Of a stretch of DNA of 64,000 nt, positions 26,795 to 36,936 are shown one piece after another. The stretch is from contig CAVRFW010000009.1 of the NCBI GenBank assembly GCA_963720565.1, positions 64,001-128,000 on the forward strand. Reading direction: 5' to 3'. Position numbers and translations under genes: made by a program. Source of the DNA: Candidatus Bathyarchaeota archaeon. GTDB lineage: Archaea; Thermoproteota; Bathyarchaeia; Bathyarchaeales; Bathycorpusculaceae. The notes below the pieces were generated by a model that was not told where the DNA came from, did not search any database, and was given only the letters and a program-made list of their open reading frames with translations. How positions within the stretch are numbered: position 1 is the stretch's first letter; every line of letters starts with the position of its first letter.

Positions 26795-28126
26795 TTAGAG
26801 GGTTTCAGTTGTTTGTTTTAGGGGGCATCCTGCTCCGCATGTGTTTAGGGTTGGGCATTCGTGGCATTTTTCTGGCGCGTATTTTCTTTGGCGAATTTTT
26901 TGGCAGGTTGGGTGTTGCCAGATGGTTTGCCAGTCATCCGTTAGTATGTTTCCCAGCGGGGCTATATTGTAGCTTTGACAGGGGATAACTGTGCCGTCGG
27001 GTTCGGTTGCCATGTTAATTCTGCAGGCGCTACAGGTTTTTAGTCCCAATTCGAGTTCCAGAGGATTAAGTTCGCAGTATTGGGTTGGCGTGTACCAGGT
27101 GAACTCCATGCCCAAATGTCGCGCTTTGGTGGTTATGCGTGTTAGGATGGGTTCTAATGTGGACTTCGTTTAGTGCGAAGGTTTTAGCTACTTCGGGTGC
27201 CTTTCCTGAATAGATTAGGCTGTTGCAGGCGAATTGTTTGAGTCCTAGACCATGAAGGAAATCTATTGTTTGTTCAATGTCTTCCACGTTGTATTGGTTT
27301 AGAGTGGTGTTGCTGATTGTGTAGATTGGCGTTTCGATTGCGTTTTTAAGCCTTGTATGGTTTCTTGCCAAGCTGCCCGGAGCGTCGGTTATTTTGTCGT
27401 GGATCTGAGGATTGTGGGATTCGACGGTTATTTGAATGTGGTCTAAGCCTGCGTCTATCAGGGATTGGAGGTAGGTTTTGTCTTTGAGCTTTCGTCCGTT
27501 GGTGACTAATCCGCTGACAAGTTCCCTTTTCTGGGCATGTTCAATTAGCACAGGTAGGTCCTCTCGTAAGGTGGGTTCTCCGCCTGTGAAAACCATGTGC
27601 GGGATGCCTATGTCGTGGAGTTTGTCAATGTAGCTATCCATTGTTGGGTATTAAGTTCGGCAGTTTGCTTGGGACCTCCGGCATAGCAGTGGATGCATCT
27701 GTTGTTGCATTTGTAGGTTAAGGCGAGGTCCATTCGGTAGGGTGCGCTTAGCTCTTTTTGGAAGGGTTCGATTTTTTGTACGTTTAGGTATGAGACGGGG
27801 CAAACGTCAGGGGTTTTTGCGAAGGTGTTTATGGTGTATAGGGTGTCTTGGTAGTCTTTGTTGGCAGTCTTCTGCGTCGACTTTGTAGTGTTTGAGGATG
27901 TTTCGGACAGTTTGTTGCTGGGTTTCGCCTCTGGTGAAGCCGTGGACGATTTCTGTTGCAGTCTTGTTTAGGAAGAGGACTCTCGACGCGTTAATTACTA
28001 GAACACTTGAACCGTCTCTTTCAAGTCGCAAGTGAAGGCGAAGTCCAGCGTATGTCACCTTCTTGGACCTTTAGATGATGAAGCACTTCTCTGAGGTTTG
28101 GGATGGAGTTTTTCTAGGATTTTCAT
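26795..28126 (-). CDS. Radical SAM/SPASM enzyme with N-terminal PqqD/RRE-like domain; several frameshifts
   Basis: Rebuilt across frames: ATG 28126; LHLRLERDGSSVLVINASRVLFLNKTATEI (PqqD-like); APYRMDLALTYKCNNRCIHCY (CxxxCxxC at 27686-27709); FTGGEPTLR; SPASM CSAC...PCQ...CHECPTLNTCGAGCP. Confidence 0.85.
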
Positions 28127-28210
28127 TCAGTGAGCACCTCCGCCAGCACATGCACAAGCGCAACTCACGCAGGCGCATGCGCAGGCGCATGAGTGGCAGG
28201 CGCAGACGCA
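28127..28210 (-). repeat. Low-complexity (TGC GCN)n repeat encoding the Cys-Ala tail
   Basis: Plus strand shows gcaggcgcatgcgcaggcgcatg-type repeats; third-position variation (TGC/TGT, GCC/GCA/GCT) fits protein-level selection. Confidence 0.8.
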
Positions 28211-29794
28211 CGATTGTTTGTTTATTGATTGGTTGCTTGGGGGAGATTGGAAGGGAATGAGTTGGTTTGCGAAGTCTTGGATGTTTTTGACCATGTTGTT
28301 AGCAGCTGATTGTATGTTCTAGGACTACGGTGTTTGCGAAATCCTGTCCTGGTAAAGTCGTTGGTTTGGTGGGAATCGGGGGTGTTGTTGTTGAGGGCGT
28401 GGTAGTTGAGGGAATCGCTGGCCCTGAGGGGCTGCGTGGAATGTTCCAGTACCACCACCAATCGGGTTTGGGAGTGATGACCGTTCCAGGTGGAAAGATT
28501 GTCTTTAAATTGGTCGTCGAATTTTTGGTCAGATAGGAGCCAATCTATGTTTTGATTTAAAGCGTCGCCTTTTAGCTCAGGGGTTTGCGCGTTGGTGACT
28601 TGTTTCCAAGCTGCATCGACTATGGATTTGTAGTATTTTGTTGTGTCTTCTCTTGAGTAACCGCGTAACCTTTGGTTTACAGTGGTCACCAATCCTTGGT
28701 ATGTGAGGGCTAAGTGCTTTTTCATTTAGAGTTCCGTCGGGTTTTACAGCTGATAGGTAGTCAATTTCGTAGTATCGAGGTTGGGTAGGTGTTTCTGCAG
28801 TAAGTTTTTGTGTTTTCTCCAGTTTCAGCAGGGGTTCAGTTTGTGTTACCGTGACTAGGCGTTTTAGGATTAGGCCGTAAAGGATCATGGTTAGGACGCG
28901 TATGGGTTTTTGGCCCAGAACTAAGCCGGCTTCCACCGCAGTTAGGGTGCGGTTGGCTCCTAGGGCTTCAACGGATATTTGGGGTTTGGTGTAGGTTGCT
29001 TTGGATAATGCGATGAATACTGCTACAATTACAGCTGCGACTACCACAAAGGCGCCTATCCCAAACAATAGTTCGATTAAGTCGAGTATACCTCCGCCAT
29101 TTTGAGGCGGAGTTGGGCTAGGTGCGGGTGAGACATAGGTTTCTGGAAATGAGACACCTGCGGCAAAGGTTTGTTCAGCTTGCCAAGTGGGTCTTTCCCA
29201 GTAAACAGCCGTTCTATTATCCTCAGTTAAGAATACGTTGTCAAAGGGCAAGTTTGAGGGATATAATACTTCGGTTGTTTGGACTCCAAAGGGCAGAATT
29301 ATTTGCAGACGCAGGTCTTCAGTTCCTATTGAGCTTGCGAATGTGCTTGGGAAGAACTGCATACCCACATTTCCAGGGTTTGTTTCATCCGAGAAAACCA
29401 TGTTTGGTACCGTTGCGTATGCAAGGAAACTGATTGGTTGGTTGAGAATTATGGGTTTTTTTAGTGTAATGTCGATGCCAATTGGGTATAGAAGAGCGTT
29501 CTCGTATTCCAGAGAGTCTCCAGCCGCAGTCTTCTACAGCTTGGATTTGGTAGCCTGCTTTGGGCATGCCTAGTGTGAAAATGCCTTGGGGTGATCCTGA
29601 AAGGTATTGAAAAGTGATGTTATAGAAGATGTTTAGGCTGACCAGTCGTGGTTGATTTCGACTCTTACCCACTCTTGGGTTACGCTGTAGGTGACGCCTT
29701 GAGCCGAAGCGAAAAAGGAAAACGAGAAACTTGCTAAGAGACACAAAAGAGCCACTAACAGGATGGTGTACGTGTGTCTCTTAGGCTTTACCAT
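28127..29794 (-). CDS. Type I membrane protein (DUF2207-like extracellular domain) with cytoplasmic 10-Cys C-terminal tail; about 5 frameshifts
   Basis: Rebuilt: signal peptide MVKPKRHTYTILLVALLCLLASFSFSFFASAQ, YSVTQEWVRVEINHD, SPAPSPTPP linker, TM, LTAVEAGLVLG, WWWYW, P/T-rich stretch, tail SCVCACHSCACACACVSCACACAGGGAH-stop at 28127. Confidence 0.75.
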
Positions 29795-30136
29795 GTGGGC
29801 TCCTCGGTTAACTCGAATTTGTTTCCGCAGTAGTCACAGGTCACGAATGGTTTTCCATCAACTATGACAGTCTTTGTTGGGTCAACGATAGCACTACAGT
29901 TTGGGACAGTGAATTTTATTTATTTTAAGCGGACCAGTGACAGTCAGGGTCTGTTTGATTTCTATGGGTTTCTTTTCGCGGGTCAAAAAAATCATTCCAC
30001 CAGCAACTGCCAAGAAGGCTAAACCTATTAGGAAATATGTGAATCCGAGGTTTGCTGAAATCATAAAGACTAACCCTAAGAAAACCAGAACTACTGCAAC
30101 TATGTAAACAAGAATTTTGCCTGCGCCTTTTACCAT
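29788..30136 (-). CDS. Small 2-TM protein with C-terminal zinc ribbon; frameshift near 29900
   Basis: ORF 29894..30136 continues after a shift as CPNCSAIVD...VTCDYCGNKFELTEEPTW-stop; the stop overlaps ATG 29794 (ATGGTAA). Confidence 0.75.
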
Positions 30137-30407: not shown

Positions 30408-31779
30408 TCAAGAATGTGGAGTCCTGCTAAACTCCTCCTTCTCCAAGTGAATCGCTGCCACCGTAGCGTTTACGTTTTTGTCTTCAACTACGATTATTAT
30501 TTGGGAAGTATGAGGTGCAAAGATTCCTCGCTTTATGTTTATTCCTCGGATGGCGCTGATGGCTGTTGAAGCTACTCCTGGTGAGTCTTTCATTTTGTCG
30601 CCAATGAGCGTGACAACTCCTAAGCCATATTCTATTTTTAGTTTTTCGTCAAACCCCTTCAGTTTTTCCTCATTCTTCTTTAGAAAGTCAGAGTCCAAAA
30701 ACAAAAAATCTCGTAGTCTCTCTCCTGTTTCGAGCGTCTCAGCGCCCAAGTCCATGAAGTCGTTGCGTTTCTCCCAGATTCTCAACGAGTCTTCAAGGGA
30801 ATGACTTTTCTCGTCATTCATAGATAATATAGCGCATCCAGCCTTTCCGGTTAAACACTTTACAACCTCTCTGCCGCTTGTCTCTGACTGAATAGTTGAG
30901 TACTTCTCAGGTTCATCTATCGGAACAATCTGCAACTTCTGCATGAATCGCCTTGCCATTGCGATTGCTGGACTCTGAACAATTTTCATGCCCATCATCG
31001 AGGCTTTGTGTGCTTCGTTGTAGGTTAGAGCAGCTACATGGTCAGTTTTCTGCCCTTTTACAACCTTCGGATCAGCACTTTGCACTGGCACATCCTTAAA
31101 CAGAAGTGTGTCAGTCTGATATCTACTCTCCAAAAGACCTGCAACGAAAACCGCAGAAAGATCTGAGCCTCCTCTACCCAAAACTGTCTCTAGTCCGTCA
31201 GGGGTTACGCCTAAGAAACCAGCGAAGGAAATGATTTTGCCGCCTTCCAAAGGCTCGACCAAAGTATCCAATCTCTTTTTGCTTAGCTCGTAGTTCGGTG
31301 TTGCGTCCTCAAAATTATCATCCGTGACAATTGGCCACTTTTCCACAGGTATGCAATAAGAGTTTAGGTTGTTGCTCTTCATAATGTAGTCTGCTAGTGT
31401 CGCCATCGAAAGCTCACCCCCTAGGGTAAGAACTTTTGCTTTGACACTTCCACTGAAGCGCTTGTTGACCGATTCAAGTGCTTCCTCCGTCTGCCTCCTG
31501 CAGTCTGCCACACAAGACAACGCTTGCCTTATGTACTCACTTCTAACATGCTGCTTGGCAATATGCTCATAAATCTTAAAAACCGCATCAACTCCGATGG
31601 GCGTTGACTGGGCGTAAGATTCCCCAATTCTGATCAGTGCATCGGTGCAACCAGTTGGCGCAGAGAACACCACAACTGGACCAAAATCGTCCTTTGTTGC
31701 AAGTTCCTTTATGCGCTTTGAGAATTTTCGTAATTCCTCTGCCTTCGGCATCTATTAGACTGCCGCCAAATTTTGCCAC
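30408..31779 (-). CDS. lysC: Aspartate kinase; frameshift near 31717; start position approximate
   Basis: VAKFGGS (in the 31588..31857 frame), VVVFSA, TDALI, LGRGGSDLSA, SADPKVV, C-terminal ACT domain. Confidence 0.85.
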
Positions 31780-31917
31780 TGAAGTCCTATTCTTTAAAGT
31801 CTTATCCTCCTGACCCAATTTAGCAGTCTTACACCTAGCTTTATTAGTTTTCTTCACTGAAAAGCTGTTACGGTTGTCAAACGATTCTAATAATTGCGAG
31901 GCAGGTCTGTAAACTAG

Positions 31918-33822
31918 ATGCCCTATATGCTGAATAGGTTTGGGAAAGAATCTTTTCTTAGGGCTTTGGGTAGATACTGGTTTTTAGTAGCTTTGTCGTC
32001 CCTGGTCTTGGCATCGTTTGTTTCAACTCCTCTCGCTCTTCTATCGGCGTTTGCCTTCACATTTCTTGTTCCAGGCTTAGTTTTCCATCGTTTTTTCAAA
32101 ATGGAAACCTGCCAGTTGTTAGCCTTCATTCCGACTTTCAGCGTATTGGTGTCAACTCAGCTGGTTTACTACACTTCTCTTCTTTTTGGATATTCGTCGG
32201 CAACAATAGCGGGTACATTTGTTGTATGGCTCCTGTTCTATGGTGTAGTCGAATGGCGAAAGCCGGCGACTATTTCATTGAGAAGTTTTATTAGAACTGC
32301 CAAGCGCAACAGAGCAATTCTGGTAATTCTTGTTTTGACGTTTGCTCTGTCTTTTGCGGTTCTTTACAGAAGCGTCTGGTTTGAAAGCGATAACGGTATT
32401 GTCTTGACAGGTTCAAACTGGCAAGATACACCCCTTCACTACGAGATTATTGAAAGCATAAACAGTGGCAATTTCCCGCCGCAAATGCCTTACTACTCTG
32501 GGGAAAAGATGACATATCATTATTTCGTGGACTTTCACACGGCAATTCTTGAGAAGGTTTATGGATACCTGCCGCAGTTGTTGCCATTCCTGAACGCAGT
32601 TTTCATTGCGGTTTTTGCCTTAGCCATCTATTCTCTTGCAAGACCAAATGGTAAACGAGCAGCTGCGTTTTCAACCATTATAGCCACATTCGGATGGGGT
32701 TTCAGCTATTTCGGTTTCTTCTCGGCACTTGCTAATGGCACATTTAATCCTGCACAGAATTATGCCTACCAATACAATGGCTTGTTTGGTTTGCCGCCAA
32801 TATTTGACAATCTGCTGCAGCAGAGGCCACTTCTGATAGGTTTGCCTGCTTTTGTATTGGTTCTCGCTCTACTGCGAAATATGGATAACAAACAAGGAGT
32901 AATCTTGGCGGGTATTATGACTGGTTTTGTTTTTCCATTCCACGCTGTGTCGTTCATTTGCTGCTACCTTGCTTATTTTGCCTTTTTGTTGCTAAACATT
33001 AGGAGTTTCAAAACTCATTACTTTTGCTTTCTAATATCTGCTGTCGTGGCGTTGCCTTTCCTTTTTTCTGGTAGTGTTTCTGTACCTCTAGTTATAGCAC
33101 CTCTATGGTACATACTCTTCATGAAGGAAAATCCGATCTTGTTTTACTTTCTTAACCTTGGTGTTCCCTTCATTGTTTCTCTGGTTTTCATAAAGAAAGT
33201 TGACGGGGTCTTTCTGAAGCTTGTCTGCCTTTTTCTATTTCTGATTCCGAACCTGGTTTCTATCACGCCTAATCCATGGGACATGTACAAATTCTTTATT
33301 TTCGCTTGGATTCCACTTGCGGTTCTGAGCGGTGCTGCCCTATCCAAAATCAAGAAAAGTGTGGCGTTTGTGCTGCTTTTGCTTTCCATTCTAACTTCGG
33401 CGAATGTCATACTCTACAATCTCGGAACTAACTATACGGCAGCCAACTGGAATGAATACGAGTTAGGAATGTGGGTTAGAGAAAACACTCCAGAACGTTC
33501 TGTATTCTTAACTTATTACTCAATTCACTGTCCTCCAGTCATGATTGGAGGGCGCTTAACGGTTGCCTCATACGTTAACTGGGCGTACGGTCACGGCGTG
33601 CCCTGGGATGATATAAAAGCACGATGCGATGATATCGATTCTGCATACACTGGAAATTCAGACAATTTGATGCAGATTGTCAATGCATACAACGTAACTT
33701 ACATCTATGTTGGCGCGGATGAACTTCGCAATTTTCCTGGATGTGCAGAGCGATTTAACGTGGTAGAGTGGCTGCGACCAGTTTACAACGGAAGCTTGCG
33801 CATATACGAAGTAGTTCTCTAA
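31918..33822 (+). CDS. GT-C-like polytopic membrane protein
   Basis: WQDTPLHY...NFPPQMPYYSG...YHYFVDF, WVRENTPERSVFL, YNVTYIYVG. Confidence 0.65.
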   Translation: MPYMLNRFGKESFLRALGRYWFLVALSSLVLASFVSTPLALLSAFAFTFLVPGLVFHRFFKMETCQLLAFIPTFSVLVSTQLVYYTSLLFGYSSATIAGTFVVWLLFYGVVEWRKPATISLRSFIRTAKRNRAILVILVLTFALSFAVLYRSVWFESDNGIVLTGSNWQDTPLHYEIIESINSGNFPPQMPYYSGEKMTYHYFVDFHTAILEKVYGYLPQLLPFLNAVFIAVFALAIYSLARPNGKRAAAFSTIIATFGWGFSYFGFFSALANGTFNPAQNYAYQYNGLFGLPPIFDNLLQQRPLLIGLPAFVLVLALLRNMDNKQGVILAGIMTGFVFPFHAVSFICCYLAYFAFLLLNIRSFKTHYFCFLISAVVALPFLFSGSVSVPLVIAPLWYILFMKENPILFYFLNLGVPFIVSLVFIKKVDGVFLKLVCLFLFLIPNLVSITPNPWDMYKFFIFAWIPLAVLSGAALSKIKKSVAFVLLLLSILTSANVILYNLGTNYTAANWNEYELGMWVRENTPERSVFLTYYSIHCPPVMIGGRLTVASYVNWAYGHGVPWDDIKARCDDIDSAYTGNSDNLMQIVNAYNVTYIYVGADELRNFPGCAERFNVVEWLRPVYNGSLRIYEVVL

Positions 33823-33903
33823 CAAATGTTGCAAGTTCAACCTTAGGCTGGGTTTGAAGGGAATGCATGTAAGAAAACTTTTATTCACACGGTTCCTGAA
33901 CTA

Positions 33904-35196
33904 TTGATTCAACGGGAGGAGCAGAAAATTAACTTCTCGGTTGAGAAGCGCGAAGTCATCGGTGTAGTTGCAGTGCTGTCGATTTCGTTTTTGGTTAGGC
34001 TTCTCTTGTTTCCGTTGCCAGGATACAAACTGGATTCGACTACTTATCAGGCATGGTTCCAGACTGCAGCTAACGTTGGATTAAGAACTTTCTATAACCC
34101 CCCGAACTGGTGTGATTATCCGCCTCTGAATATCTATTTTTTCTGGGGTTTCGGGTCATTAGCGAAAACGCTTTCACTTTTCGGAACACCCGCAATGGGC
34201 TATCTTGTCAAGCTGGTTCCTAACCTGTTTGACGCTGCAACTGCGCTGATGATTTTTGTTTTTTCTAGAAAGCGTTTAGACTTCAAAATGGCGCTTTTGG
34301 CTACCGCCGCCTACTCGTTTAACCCTGCAGTTATCTTGAATGCAGCAGTGTGGGGTCAATACGACGCGATTTACACTTTCTTCCTTGTTCTATCTGTCAT
34401 GCTGGGATTGGCTTCAAAGCCTGAGCTTTGCGCTATTTCTTTCACGCTTAGCATTCTTACTAAACCGCAAGGCATAGCCTTAGCTCCTCTAATCGCCTTT
34501 CTGATTCTCAGAAAATATCGGCTACAATGGCGTCGTCTTCTGTCTTCACTATTCAGCGCGGTAGTTACCGTTTTCCTGGTAATAGTTCCTTTTGAGTGGA
34601 GCAACCCACTTACTTTCCTGACCAACATATACTTCGGAGCATATAGCGGCTACGCTGTTACATCCGTGAACGCGTTCAACATATGGGGACTAGTTGGGTT
34701 CTGGTTGCCTGACACAAACTACTATGTGATAGGATGGGTTCTTTTCGCAATCGTGGCTATCTTTACTTTGTATGTTCTGCATAGGCGGTTTGAGGTTTCA
34801 GGTGAAGTGCTCGTTCTTTTTTCAGCTTTCCTTCTTCTTTTCAGTTTCTTCATGCTTCCAACAAGAATTCATGAAAGGTATCTGTTTCCAACGATGAGCT
34901 TTCTGGCTTTGTTGTTTCCACTCCTAAAAAAGGCGCGCCCCATTTACTTGGTCTTAACTGGGACCTGTTTTGTCAATCAAGCATATGTTCTCTATTGGCT
35001 TAATGTTTACACAGACGCTGGTTACAACTACAGCCCCAATCTCACAGGCGACCCCGTAGCTATCGCAGTAAGCTTGATTAATTTAGTAGTGTTCCTTTAC
35101 GCTTTGACACTGATTCAGGCTGAGCTTAAAGGTGGATTAGGTATCCGAACTCGACCTGTTACGGCAGTACAGAACAAAACGAAGGAGGCTGGCTAA
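33904..35196 (+). CDS. GT-C mannosyltransferase-like protein (GT87/PIG-M/DUF2029-like)
   Basis: DYPPL, FNPAVILNAAVWGQYD, KPQG, NAFNIW, PTRIHERYLFP. Confidence 0.75.
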   Translation: MIQREEQKINFSVEKREVIGVVAVLSISFLVRLLLFPLPGYKLDSTTYQAWFQTAANVGLRTFYNPPNWCDYPPLNIYFFWGFGSLAKTLSLFGTPAMGYLVKLVPNLFDAATALMIFVFSRKRLDFKMALLATAAYSFNPAVILNAAVWGQYDAIYTFFLVLSVMLGLASKPELCAISFTLSILTKPQGIALAPLIAFLILRKYRLQWRRLLSSLFSAVVTVFLVIVPFEWSNPLTFLTNIYFGAYSGYAVTSVNAFNIWGLVGFWLPDTNYYVIGWVLFAIVAIFTLYVLHRRFEVSGEVLVLFSAFLLLFSFFMLPTRIHERYLFPTMSFLALLFPLLKKARPIYLVLTGTCFVNQAYVLYWLNVYTDAGYNYSPNLTGDPVAIAVSLINLVVFLYALTLIQAELKGGLGIRTRPVTAVQNKTKEAG

Positions 35197-35202
35197 ACCA
35201 GA

Positions 35203-36936
35203 ATGGACATCGATAAGCGAGACTTGCTCACGATAACTGTCATATCCATAGTCTTCTTCTCAATGGCGGCTTGGAACCTTGGACTTACACAGGCACCCAT
35301 CACCACATGGCAAACTAGCCAAGACCAATCATTCTACATAGACATAGGCAAAACCGAAAGCATTGACACTGTTTATCTCTTAGTCAAGAATGGTTCCGCC
35401 ACAGCCCAAGCTTACACTGGGTTTCCAGGAAACTGGAACTCTCAAGGAATACTCCCACTTAGCATCACCTATCCATACGACTACTATAGTTGGAGCAAAA
35501 TTACCATTGAAAGCAGCACACAGTATGTACGTTTTCATTTCGAGAATGCATCCGTTGAAGTCGCTGAAATAGCGGTTCTCGACCAAGACAATCAGAAAGT
35601 TCCAATTGTCGCAATCGCAGGTGAAAACGAATCTAGCCAAGACTTAGCTAGGCTGATTGATGAACAGGGCTTGGTTGAGTGTCCTCCAACGTATATGTCG
35701 GAGACTTTCTTTGACGAGATCTACTACGTGAAAACCGCGGAGAACTACCTGAGACTTGAGTACCCTTACGAGTGGACTCATCCCCCGCTGGGAAAATTGA
35801 TAATTGCTTTCGGAATTTTCGCTTTAGGTTACAGTCCTTTCGTGTGGCGAATAATGGGCGTGGCTTTCGCAACATTAATGCTGCCTATAATCTACCTGTT
35901 GGGCAAGAGGTTGTTTGGAACCTGGATTGGCGCCTTCACCTCTGCTTTCCTGTTGGCTTTTGATTTTATGCATTTCACAATGGCGCGAATGGCAACCGTG
36001 GATACCTATGTTGTCTTTTTTTCGTTAGCTTCGCAGCTTTTCTTCTTAATCTACATTAAAGATTTGTTTAAGAACGGTTGGAAAGCCTCAATTATTCCAC
36101 TGTTCTTGGGATTTCTGTTTTTCGCGCTCGGTTTCTCAACAAAATGGTTTATTCTTTACGGTTTCATAGGGTTAATTGCCTTCATATTAATTCTAAGACT
36201 AAGAGACGTTATCAAACTAGAGGAAACTTGGGCCGCGAGGCTTAATGCTCTCCTGGATCCGCCATTCTACTTGTTGCCTCTATTCCTGCTGGTAGCAATC
36301 TTGATTTATTTTCTAACTTTCATACCAGACATGATAGTTGGGCGCTCCATAGTTGATGTTCTTGGGCTTCAAGGATCAATGTACATTTACCACTCCACTC
36401 TTTCGGCTACACATCCTTTTTCTTCCGCGTGGTGGAGCTGGCCTCTAATGTTGCGTCCTGTTTGGCTGTACGTCTCTTACCTGCCGCTTGACCTGAAGTC
36501 TACAATCACCTTGTTAGGCAACCCTGCAGTCTGGTGGCCTGGCTTCATCTCCATAATCGTAGTTGCGGCAAGAGCTATCCCAGGTCATTTCTGGAAAAAG
36601 CTGCCTAAACTACAAGTCCTTGCCAGAAATCAACCCGGTGTAGATTGGATTGCCTTATTCATCGTGGTTGTTTTCTTTTTCCAATGGGTTCCGTACGTTT
36701 TCATTTCTCGAATTACCTTTGTCTATCATTACTACCTCAATGTGCCGCTTCTCTGTTTAGCTTCAGCATACTTGGTAAGCAAGTGCTGGTCCAGCAAGTG
36801 GGGCAAGATAGCTACCATTATTCTTCTTGCAGCTGTCGTGATTCTATTCGCTCTGTTTTATCCCGTAATCTCCGGAAACCCCTCTTCTACAACATTTATT
36901 GACAGCCTGAAATGGTTTGAAAGTTGGGTGTTCTAA
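35203..36936 (+). CDS. Dolichyl-phosphate-mannose:protein O-mannosyltransferase (PMT, GT39)
   Basis: FFDEIYYV, EWTHPPLGK, WRIMG, ARMATVD, KW, HPFSSAWWSWPLMLRP, LGNPAVWW, FVYHY. Confidence 0.85.
   Translation: MDIDKRDLLTITVISIVFFSMAAWNLGLTQAPITTWQTSQDQSFYIDIGKTESIDTVYLLVKNGSATAQAYTGFPGNWNSQGILPLSITYPYDYYSWSKITIESSTQYVRFHFENASVEVAEIAVLDQDNQKVPIVAIAGENESSQDLARLIDEQGLVECPPTYMSETFFDEIYYVKTAENYLRLEYPYEWTHPPLGKLIIAFGIFALGYSPFVWRIMGVAFATLMLPIIYLLGKRLFGTWIGAFTSAFLLAFDFMHFTMARMATVDTYVVFFSLASQLFFLIYIKDLFKNGWKASIIPLFLGFLFFALGFSTKWFILYGFIGLIAFILILRLRDVIKLEETWAARLNALLDPPFYLLPLFLLVAILIYFLTFIPDMIVGRSIVDVLGLQGSMYIYHSTLSATHPFSSAWWSWPLMLRPVWLYVSYLPLDLKSTITLLGNPAVWWPGFISIIVVAARAIPGHFWKKLPKLQVLARNQPGVDWIALFIVVVFFFQWVPYVFISRITFVYHYYLNVPLLCLASAYLVSKCWSSKWGKIATIILLAAVVILFALFYPVISGNPSSTTFIDSLKWFESWVF

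Follow-up and report, generated by a model that had tools for sequence, protein, structure and literature searches.

RiPP chemistry carried out on a whole protein by a radical SAM enzyme is represented by few tested cases, QhpC and CrpA, according to PMC13692751. The same paper describes CrpC, the partner of CrpA in Methanococcus voltae, as an archaeal RRE-radical SAM-SPASM enzyme (TIGR04463), gives its AuxI three cysteines and assigns CrpA ten 17-residue repeats with C-X-X-Q/D acceptors. A second comparison is provided by membrane proteins of the TIGR04222 type encoded beside MNIO (DUF692) enzymes. Their cysteine tails are proposed as MNIO substrates in PMC12452194, where periplasmic tails and several transmembrane segments are predicted for TIGR04222 proteins and a third of the genomes with TIGR04222 genes are without an MNIO. 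MNIOs make 5-thiooxazoles in copper-binding peptides (PMC12668002), and the radical SAM/SPASM enzyme SbtM (TIGR04082) converts Gly-Cys to a thiooxazole (-4 Da, 304 nm) in a peptide, at a GGUG motif (PMC9204691).

We analyzed a 64,000-nucleotide stretch of a Candidatus Bathyarchaeota contig (the window) that contains a three-gene cassette encoding, in order, a 2-TM zinc-ribbon protein, a membrane protein of about 550 aa ending in a Cys-Ala tail, and an RRE-radical SAM-SPASM enzyme. The cassette would work like CrpC/CrpA and the proposed TIGR04222-MNIO pairs, yet it lies outside the families TIGR04463 and TIGR04082 and outside the MNIO clusters. CrpC/CrpA too pairs such an enzyme with a large protein whose C-terminal region is rich in Cys, in a layout of RiPP-like protein modification, but unlike CrpA the tail here is a 25-residue Cys-Ala array without C-X-X-Q/D acceptors, and TIGR04463 is absent from the NCBIfam matches of the enzyme at E ≤ 1e-20. 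The filter described in PMC13692751 (at least 5% Cys above 250 aa) would miss the tailed protein, which has about 2% Cys, and the strings 'membrane' and 'Bathyarch' are absent from the main text of that paper. Comparison with the TIGR04222-MNIO pairs shows a membrane protein in both, with a low-complexity Cys/Gly/Ser C-terminus in TIGR04222 and in-place modification proposed there (PMC12452194); the partner here is instead a radical SAM enzyme, the protein has one TM segment and the tail appears to be cytoplasmic. MNIO (PF05114) was not found in this genome, which is 88.8% complete.

SbtM is also a radical SAM/SPASM enzyme with a small-residue-Cys unit as its target and offers a precedent for the chemistry that we favor. 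It belongs to a separate family, since only the SPASM fragment gives a TIGR04082 match (E 1.1e-5, 24 vs 350 bits) and TIGR04082 is absent from the matches of the full-length enzymes at E ≤ 1e-20. The RRE-radical SAM-SPASM architecture is shared with sacti- and ranthipeptide maturases and QhpD (SkfB, AlbA, CteB, PapB). In contrast to the sacti- and ranthipeptide maturases, the enzyme here has a membrane protein of 550 aa as its candidate substrate, no short precursor turned up, and all family scores are far below cut-off (NCBIfam: SkfB 81 against 300, AlbA 76 against 850). A literature search, with subscription journals and supplements outside its scope, returned no description of the cassette and no radical-SAM RiPP chemistry on an integral membrane protein.

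A conserved Cys-Ala tail

The tail and its stop codon occupy positions 28127..28210 of the minus strand, where the peptide, read from 28210 to 28127, is SCVCACHSCACACACVSCACACAGGGAH-stop. An earlier note on this DNA had described three blocks of Cys (3+4+3, ten in all) ahead of GGG, and this was confirmed. The word CACAC has three occurrences in a six-frame translation of the whole 2.09-Mb genome, and the tail itself contains three such words; a word so rare genome-wide and yet found three times within the tail argues against chance. The 25-codon pattern was fitted by 78 of 80 genome loci, and in those 78 none of the 10 Cys columns varies, Cys is written with both of its codons and Ala with all four, and the mean entropy is 0.19, 0.20 and 1.45 bits by codon position. 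Invariant Cys columns together with freely variable codons indicate selection on the protein and exclude DNA slippage, as had been argued earlier from synonymous codon variation, and the tail is a selected protein feature. The antisense Arg-rich ORF at 28075-28260 is open in only 17 of the 78 loci and is therefore taken as a shadow.

Homologues were collected with a tail-free query, a 230-aa middle piece of the membrane protein, which returned 130 proteins, 120 of them listed. All 120 listed proteins carry the tail in frame at the C-terminus, so that the proposed attachment of the tail to this membrane protein held. The source names of homologues point to Candidatus Bathyarchaeia. Alignment of the homologous tails for their Cys count, a check set beforehand, gave 10 Cys in the last 45 residues of 118 and 9 in the other 2. 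The same query found genes of relatives with the tail in frame in 11 of 11. When 1.84 billion representatives were searched with a membrane-protein profile that included the tail, 948 matched at E ≤ 0.001 and 605 at E ≤ 1e-10, the latter being clusters at 50% identity. Among the newly listed matches of at least 500 aa to this tail-including profile, 111 of 113 have a tail and the other two match the ectodomain only. A second common tail type has 6-8 Cys and then GGGR, after a Gly/Ser linker. The named members among 20 proteins looked up are from Anaerolineae, Ca. Zymogenus saltonus, Theionarchaea and Methanocella sp. CWC-04, the last being the member from a RefSeq genome (WP_230741659.1). The tailed membrane protein family is large and occurs in both archaea and bacteria of anaerobic habit.

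No other region of the protein comes near the tail in mean column conservation (0.82, vs 0.58 for the cytoplasmic domain). Across homologue tails, Ala fills 646 of the 682 positions between two Cys and Asp fills 2, and the number of Cys per tail ranges from 3 to 11 with a variable block layout when distant homologues are included. No Pfam or NCBIfam family matched the tail at E ≤ 0.1, and residues 511-548 of the predicted model are without confident structure (pLDDT <50). In P0143, P0155 and G118 the tail is internal, with about 85 more residues after it, so a free C-terminus is not required. This extension of about 85 aa (P0143, P0155, L176:1816-3936) has no Pfam match.

The membrane protein and its reading frame

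The gene for the single-pass membrane protein, a distant DUF2207/TIGR04222 relative, lies at 28127..29794 on the minus strand and is broken in this assembly by 1-2-nt indels near 29641, 29524, 28711, 28503 and 28319. On the same strand, a predicted signal peptide is followed by an extracellular beta-sandwich (29130..29700, limits approximate) with the ribophorin I/Ost1 fold. The likeness to DUF2207, ribophorin I and Ost1 covers one aligned luminal domain at 9-15% identity with no oligosaccharyltransferase context, and the shared ribophorin I/Ost1 fold shows no function. The single transmembrane helix (29006..29089, minus strand; helix 235-262 in the model) was placed with alignment A1 and is directly followed by Lys/Arg, from which we infer that the C-terminal part, and with it the tail, is located in the cytoplasm. 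A helical domain on the cytoplasmic side (28450..29000, minus strand, limits approximate) resembles GOLPH3/Vps74 as a lead. Weak matches to DUF2207 (PF09972 / PF20990), with the scores shown under cut-off, were obtained for 11 of 69 (best E 1.4e-5) and 4 of 40 members, and the Atlas neighbours include DUF2207 clusters. Weak TIGR04222 matches came from 7 of the 40 bacterial-type members (best E 4.8e-6) and from 0 of 8 archaeal members.

Several members vary in architecture. The ectodomain is duplicated in four proteins of about 770 aa (P0140, P0159, P0163, P0185), and one locus (L103) contains two tailed genes in tandem. In a Theionarchaea cluster (P0188), the membrane protein carries a zinc ribbon inserted within its cytoplasmic domain, a hint that this domain is where the separately encoded zinc-ribbon protein acts.

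Ahead of the spacer lies a conserved Pro/Trp-rich motif in which one Trp is invariant (69/69 rows). A conserved amphipathic helix pair (DFAN...DFAN; 28256..28343, minus strand, spanning the 1-nt insertion near 28319) lies ahead of the tail as a candidate leader. This stretch is conserved, with a mean column value of 0.59 vs 0.29 for the P/T spacer. It may act as a leader, but a profile of the helix pair drops below 1 bit in 13 of the 111 distant full-length homologues with a tail and below 10 bits in 18 of them.

In the window as written, the tail falls in a 62-residue open stretch, three frame changes from the main ORF, and an extra base near 28319 splits the amphipathic stretch that had been read as one frame. 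P0002, the intact homologue nearest to the window copy (81-98% identity across four pieces), has the whole stretch in one frame, and contigs of public runs are without the extra base at 28319 in 4 of 4 cases and at 28711 in 3 of 4. The refuting condition of the earlier note, a tail out of frame with the membrane protein, thus holds to the letter in this assembly but not biologically. The indels in the membrane gene are most likely assembly errors, recent pseudogenisation of the cassette copy in this strain being less likely, and the tail marks a gene hidden by frameshifted long-read assemblies. The aspartate kinase gene next door (30408-31857, minus strand) is also split, by a frameshift near 31730, with its N-terminus in a short ORF at 31588-31857.

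The radical SAM enzyme and its linkage to the tail

The ATG of the enzyme gene (26795..28126, minus strand) is at 28126, directly after the stop codon of the tail with no gap. The gene is frameshifted here and encodes 442 aa in the intact homologue L015. PF04055 (98 bits) and PF13186 (44 bits) are both over cut-off, and 3+7 Cys are invariant. The CxxxCxxC radical SAM motif (27686..27709, minus strand) is invariant in 69/69 rows of alignment A3. An RRE/PqqD-like domain at 27855..27989 (minus strand) matched PF05402 under the Pfam cut-off (E 2.5e-4, 21.8 vs 23.4 bits) and NF033530 at E 1.4e-4; the PF05402 match is just under cut-off, at E 1e-4 to 2.5e-3, in the window enzyme, L015 and a paralogue. 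No NCBIfam family reached its cut-off for the enzyme, the best being NirJ2 (149 of 500) and PqqE (137 of 381), and among solved structures the peptide maturases PqqE and then SkfB (second-best, E 2e-17) come closest. Seven SPASM Cys are invariant in 69/69 rows, which we take, by their spacing in other SPASM enzymes, to be four AuxI and three AuxII ligands, and AuxI thus looks fully Cys-ligated. Of the archaeal enzymes 56 of 66, and of the metagenome ones 9 of 40, have a further C-terminal Cys, the fourth of AuxII, which the window enzyme lacks.

The first cassette gene (29788..30136, minus strand; frameshift near 29906) encodes the small 2-TM protein with weak zinc-ribbon Pfam matches, and its family was found in 136 of 160 loci. 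The enzyme family is present in all 72 of the 80 genome loci that have at least 1.5 kb downstream, adjacent in 69. It is also present in 44 of the 49 metagenome loci (of 80) with room downstream, adjacent in 39 and elsewhere in the locus in 5, one of which (L167) has only a Cys-less paralogue. In the other five of the 49 (L094, L120, L144, L150, L170) no enzyme was found in a search at the locus only. Across 41 related genomes, the membrane gene occurs in 12, an enzyme orthologue (E ≤ 1e-95) in the same 12 and in G017, and neither in 28. In G017 the tail precedes the enzyme and the remainder of the membrane gene is in an N gap, so that tail and enzyme occur together in 13 of 41. The membrane gene was found in 16 of 301 genomes of the phylum and the enzyme in 15 of these and in no other; in the sixteenth (G295) the locus is cut by a contig end. 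Four genomes are common to the two samples, and kin are not independent. Both genes are absent in three of four congeners (89, 96 and 65% complete).

Trees of 69 enzyme-membrane protein pairs gave a patristic Spearman value of 0.92, with 22 of 36 supported splits shared and 29 compatible, although such congruence and co-occurrence would be expected anyway of any linked genes. Compared with an RRE-dependent radical SAM/SPASM RiPP maturase system, the cassette has an adjacent, co-inherited candidate substrate and an enzyme with the CxxxCxxC motif and SPASM Cys; in place of a short precursor with a leader and released core, it has a candidate substrate of about 550 aa. When ORFs of at least 85 aa were clustered, no other short Cys-rich precursor recurred among the commonest neighbour clusters. 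The genome strongly backs the RiPP-like reading of the tail given in the earlier note, by placing an RRE-radical SAM-SPASM gene next to it. Elsewhere in the window, the genes at 31918-36936 (plus strand), for three large polytopic proteins of the membrane and one glycosyltransferase-like product, look by eye like a protein or lipid glycosylation cluster, and they are not conserved beside the cassette in other loci.

Proposed modification of the tail and competing explanations

A near-invariant Cys-Ala repeat in a gene that travels with a dedicated enzyme suggests that the tail is chemically rewritten while attached. Judging from these sequence features, the enzyme probably modifies the cysteines of the tail in place, the tail staying on the membrane protein. 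The RRE would dock somewhere on the cytoplasmic part of that protein, and the 5'-deoxyadenosyl radical would abstract a hydrogen in the tail. The TIGR04222 genomes without an MNIO (PMC12452194) count against this proposal, as related tails can exist without a modifier.

An unmodified tail, acting as the metallothionein-like or Fe-S-binding module that had been offered as an alternative, with the radical SAM gene linked for another reason, is unlikely. It would agree with the lack of confident structure in the model, with Cys positions that are all invariant in the archaeal loci, with the zinc-ribbon partner in the cassette and with the five metagenome loci where the enzyme is not nearby, and CxC arrays bind soft metals. 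Metallothionein spacers, though, vary and are often Lys/Ser, unlike the nearly uniform Ala here. The tail has no Pfam or NCBIfam match and belongs to a protein of about 550 aa, whereas a metallothionein is a small free-standing Cys-rich protein recognized by a family HMM, and the joint retention and loss of an RRE-bearing enzyme with the gene would be unexplained. A somewhat lower probability is given to an enzyme that acts elsewhere, on the Pro/Trp-rich motif, the zinc-ribbon protein or a small molecule, with the tail as a donor of sulfur, a cluster or electrons or as a cluster ligand. Ten of 66 archaeal and 31 of 40 metagenome enzymes lack the fourth AuxII Cys, so the vacant ligand position might be taken by a thiol of the tail; the invariant motif Trp would suit such a target, and PqqE, the nearest solved relative, makes a C-C bond and does not modify Cys. 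A donor would not need as many as 10-11 regularly spaced Cys, however, and the region under by far the strongest conservation is the tail.

Release of the modified tail as a free peptide, with the helix pair as its leader in the manner of a classical RiPP, seems very improbable despite the helix-linker-core layout, the RRE on the enzyme and a methyltransferase gene in 28 of 80 metagenome loci. The 30 commonest neighbour clusters include no protease and no exporter, and this, together with the residues past the tail in P0143, P0155 and G118, makes a released core doubtful. In addition, no conserved cleavage motif was seen in the linker in alignment A1, the helix pair escapes detection in 13 of the 111 homologues, and the body of about 500 aa is conserved in its own right.

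For modification in place, three kinds of chemistry were considered by analogy. Per-residue oxidation of Ala-Cys to an SbtM-like thiooxazole is our tentative choice and slightly leads. In this route the Cys C-beta would be oxidised to a thioaldehyde and on to a 5-thiooxazole, with -4 Da for each Cys, in parallel to the SbtM reaction on Gly-Cys, and the enzyme would be an anaerobic analogue of the MNIOs next to TIGR04222 tails. Crosslinking by thioethers (-2 Da per link), the CrpC reaction, is also conceivable, and other chemistry such as alternating epimerisation is rather doubtful. Local, residue-by-residue chemistry is favored over a fixed crosslink map by the differing Cys numbers and layouts. 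The Ala spacers, almost devoid of the Asp/Glu/Asn/Gln acceptors that CrpC and QhpD use, and an AuxI that looks fully ligated, as compared with the three Cys given for CrpC (PMC13692751), point the same way.

Up to ten 5-thiooxazoles, or a thioether ladder, might sit on an intact receptor-like membrane protein as a membrane-tethered metal-binding or signalling polymer, which is put forward tentatively. As to purpose, a membrane-tethered element for soft-metal binding or redox sensing on the receptor-like protein is one weakly supported possibility. If such a chain of thiooxazoles or thioethers is indeed formed, Bathyarchaeia, methanogens and anaerobic bacteria would have an O2-independent counterpart of MNIO metallophore chemistry, and the modified polymer would sit on a protein composed of a ribophorin-I-like ectodomain and a GOLPH3-like cytoplasmic domain. 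As the 25-residue substrate is obvious and simple to make, the chemistry of the unnamed enzyme lends itself to direct testing.

The enzyme family shows two further features. Conserved Cys outside the canonical ligands occur at L015 enzyme positions 108, 367 and 372 (alignment of 114) and could serve as a hydrogen donor or further ligand; that in the RRE-barrel linker is found in 104 of 114 enzymes and replaced by Asp in 10, and that in the SPASM hairpin sits at either of two positions. Many bacterial-type loci also encode a second enzyme paralogue that keeps the RRE and barrel but has lost CxxxCxxC and, in most, the SPASM Cys (L156:9074-10228, L105:9041-10195, L115:9620-10843, L128:7690-8880, L167:2932-4227). 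This Cys-less paralogue is possibly a non-catalytic partner subunit, and its gene is often followed by that of a class I methyltransferase.
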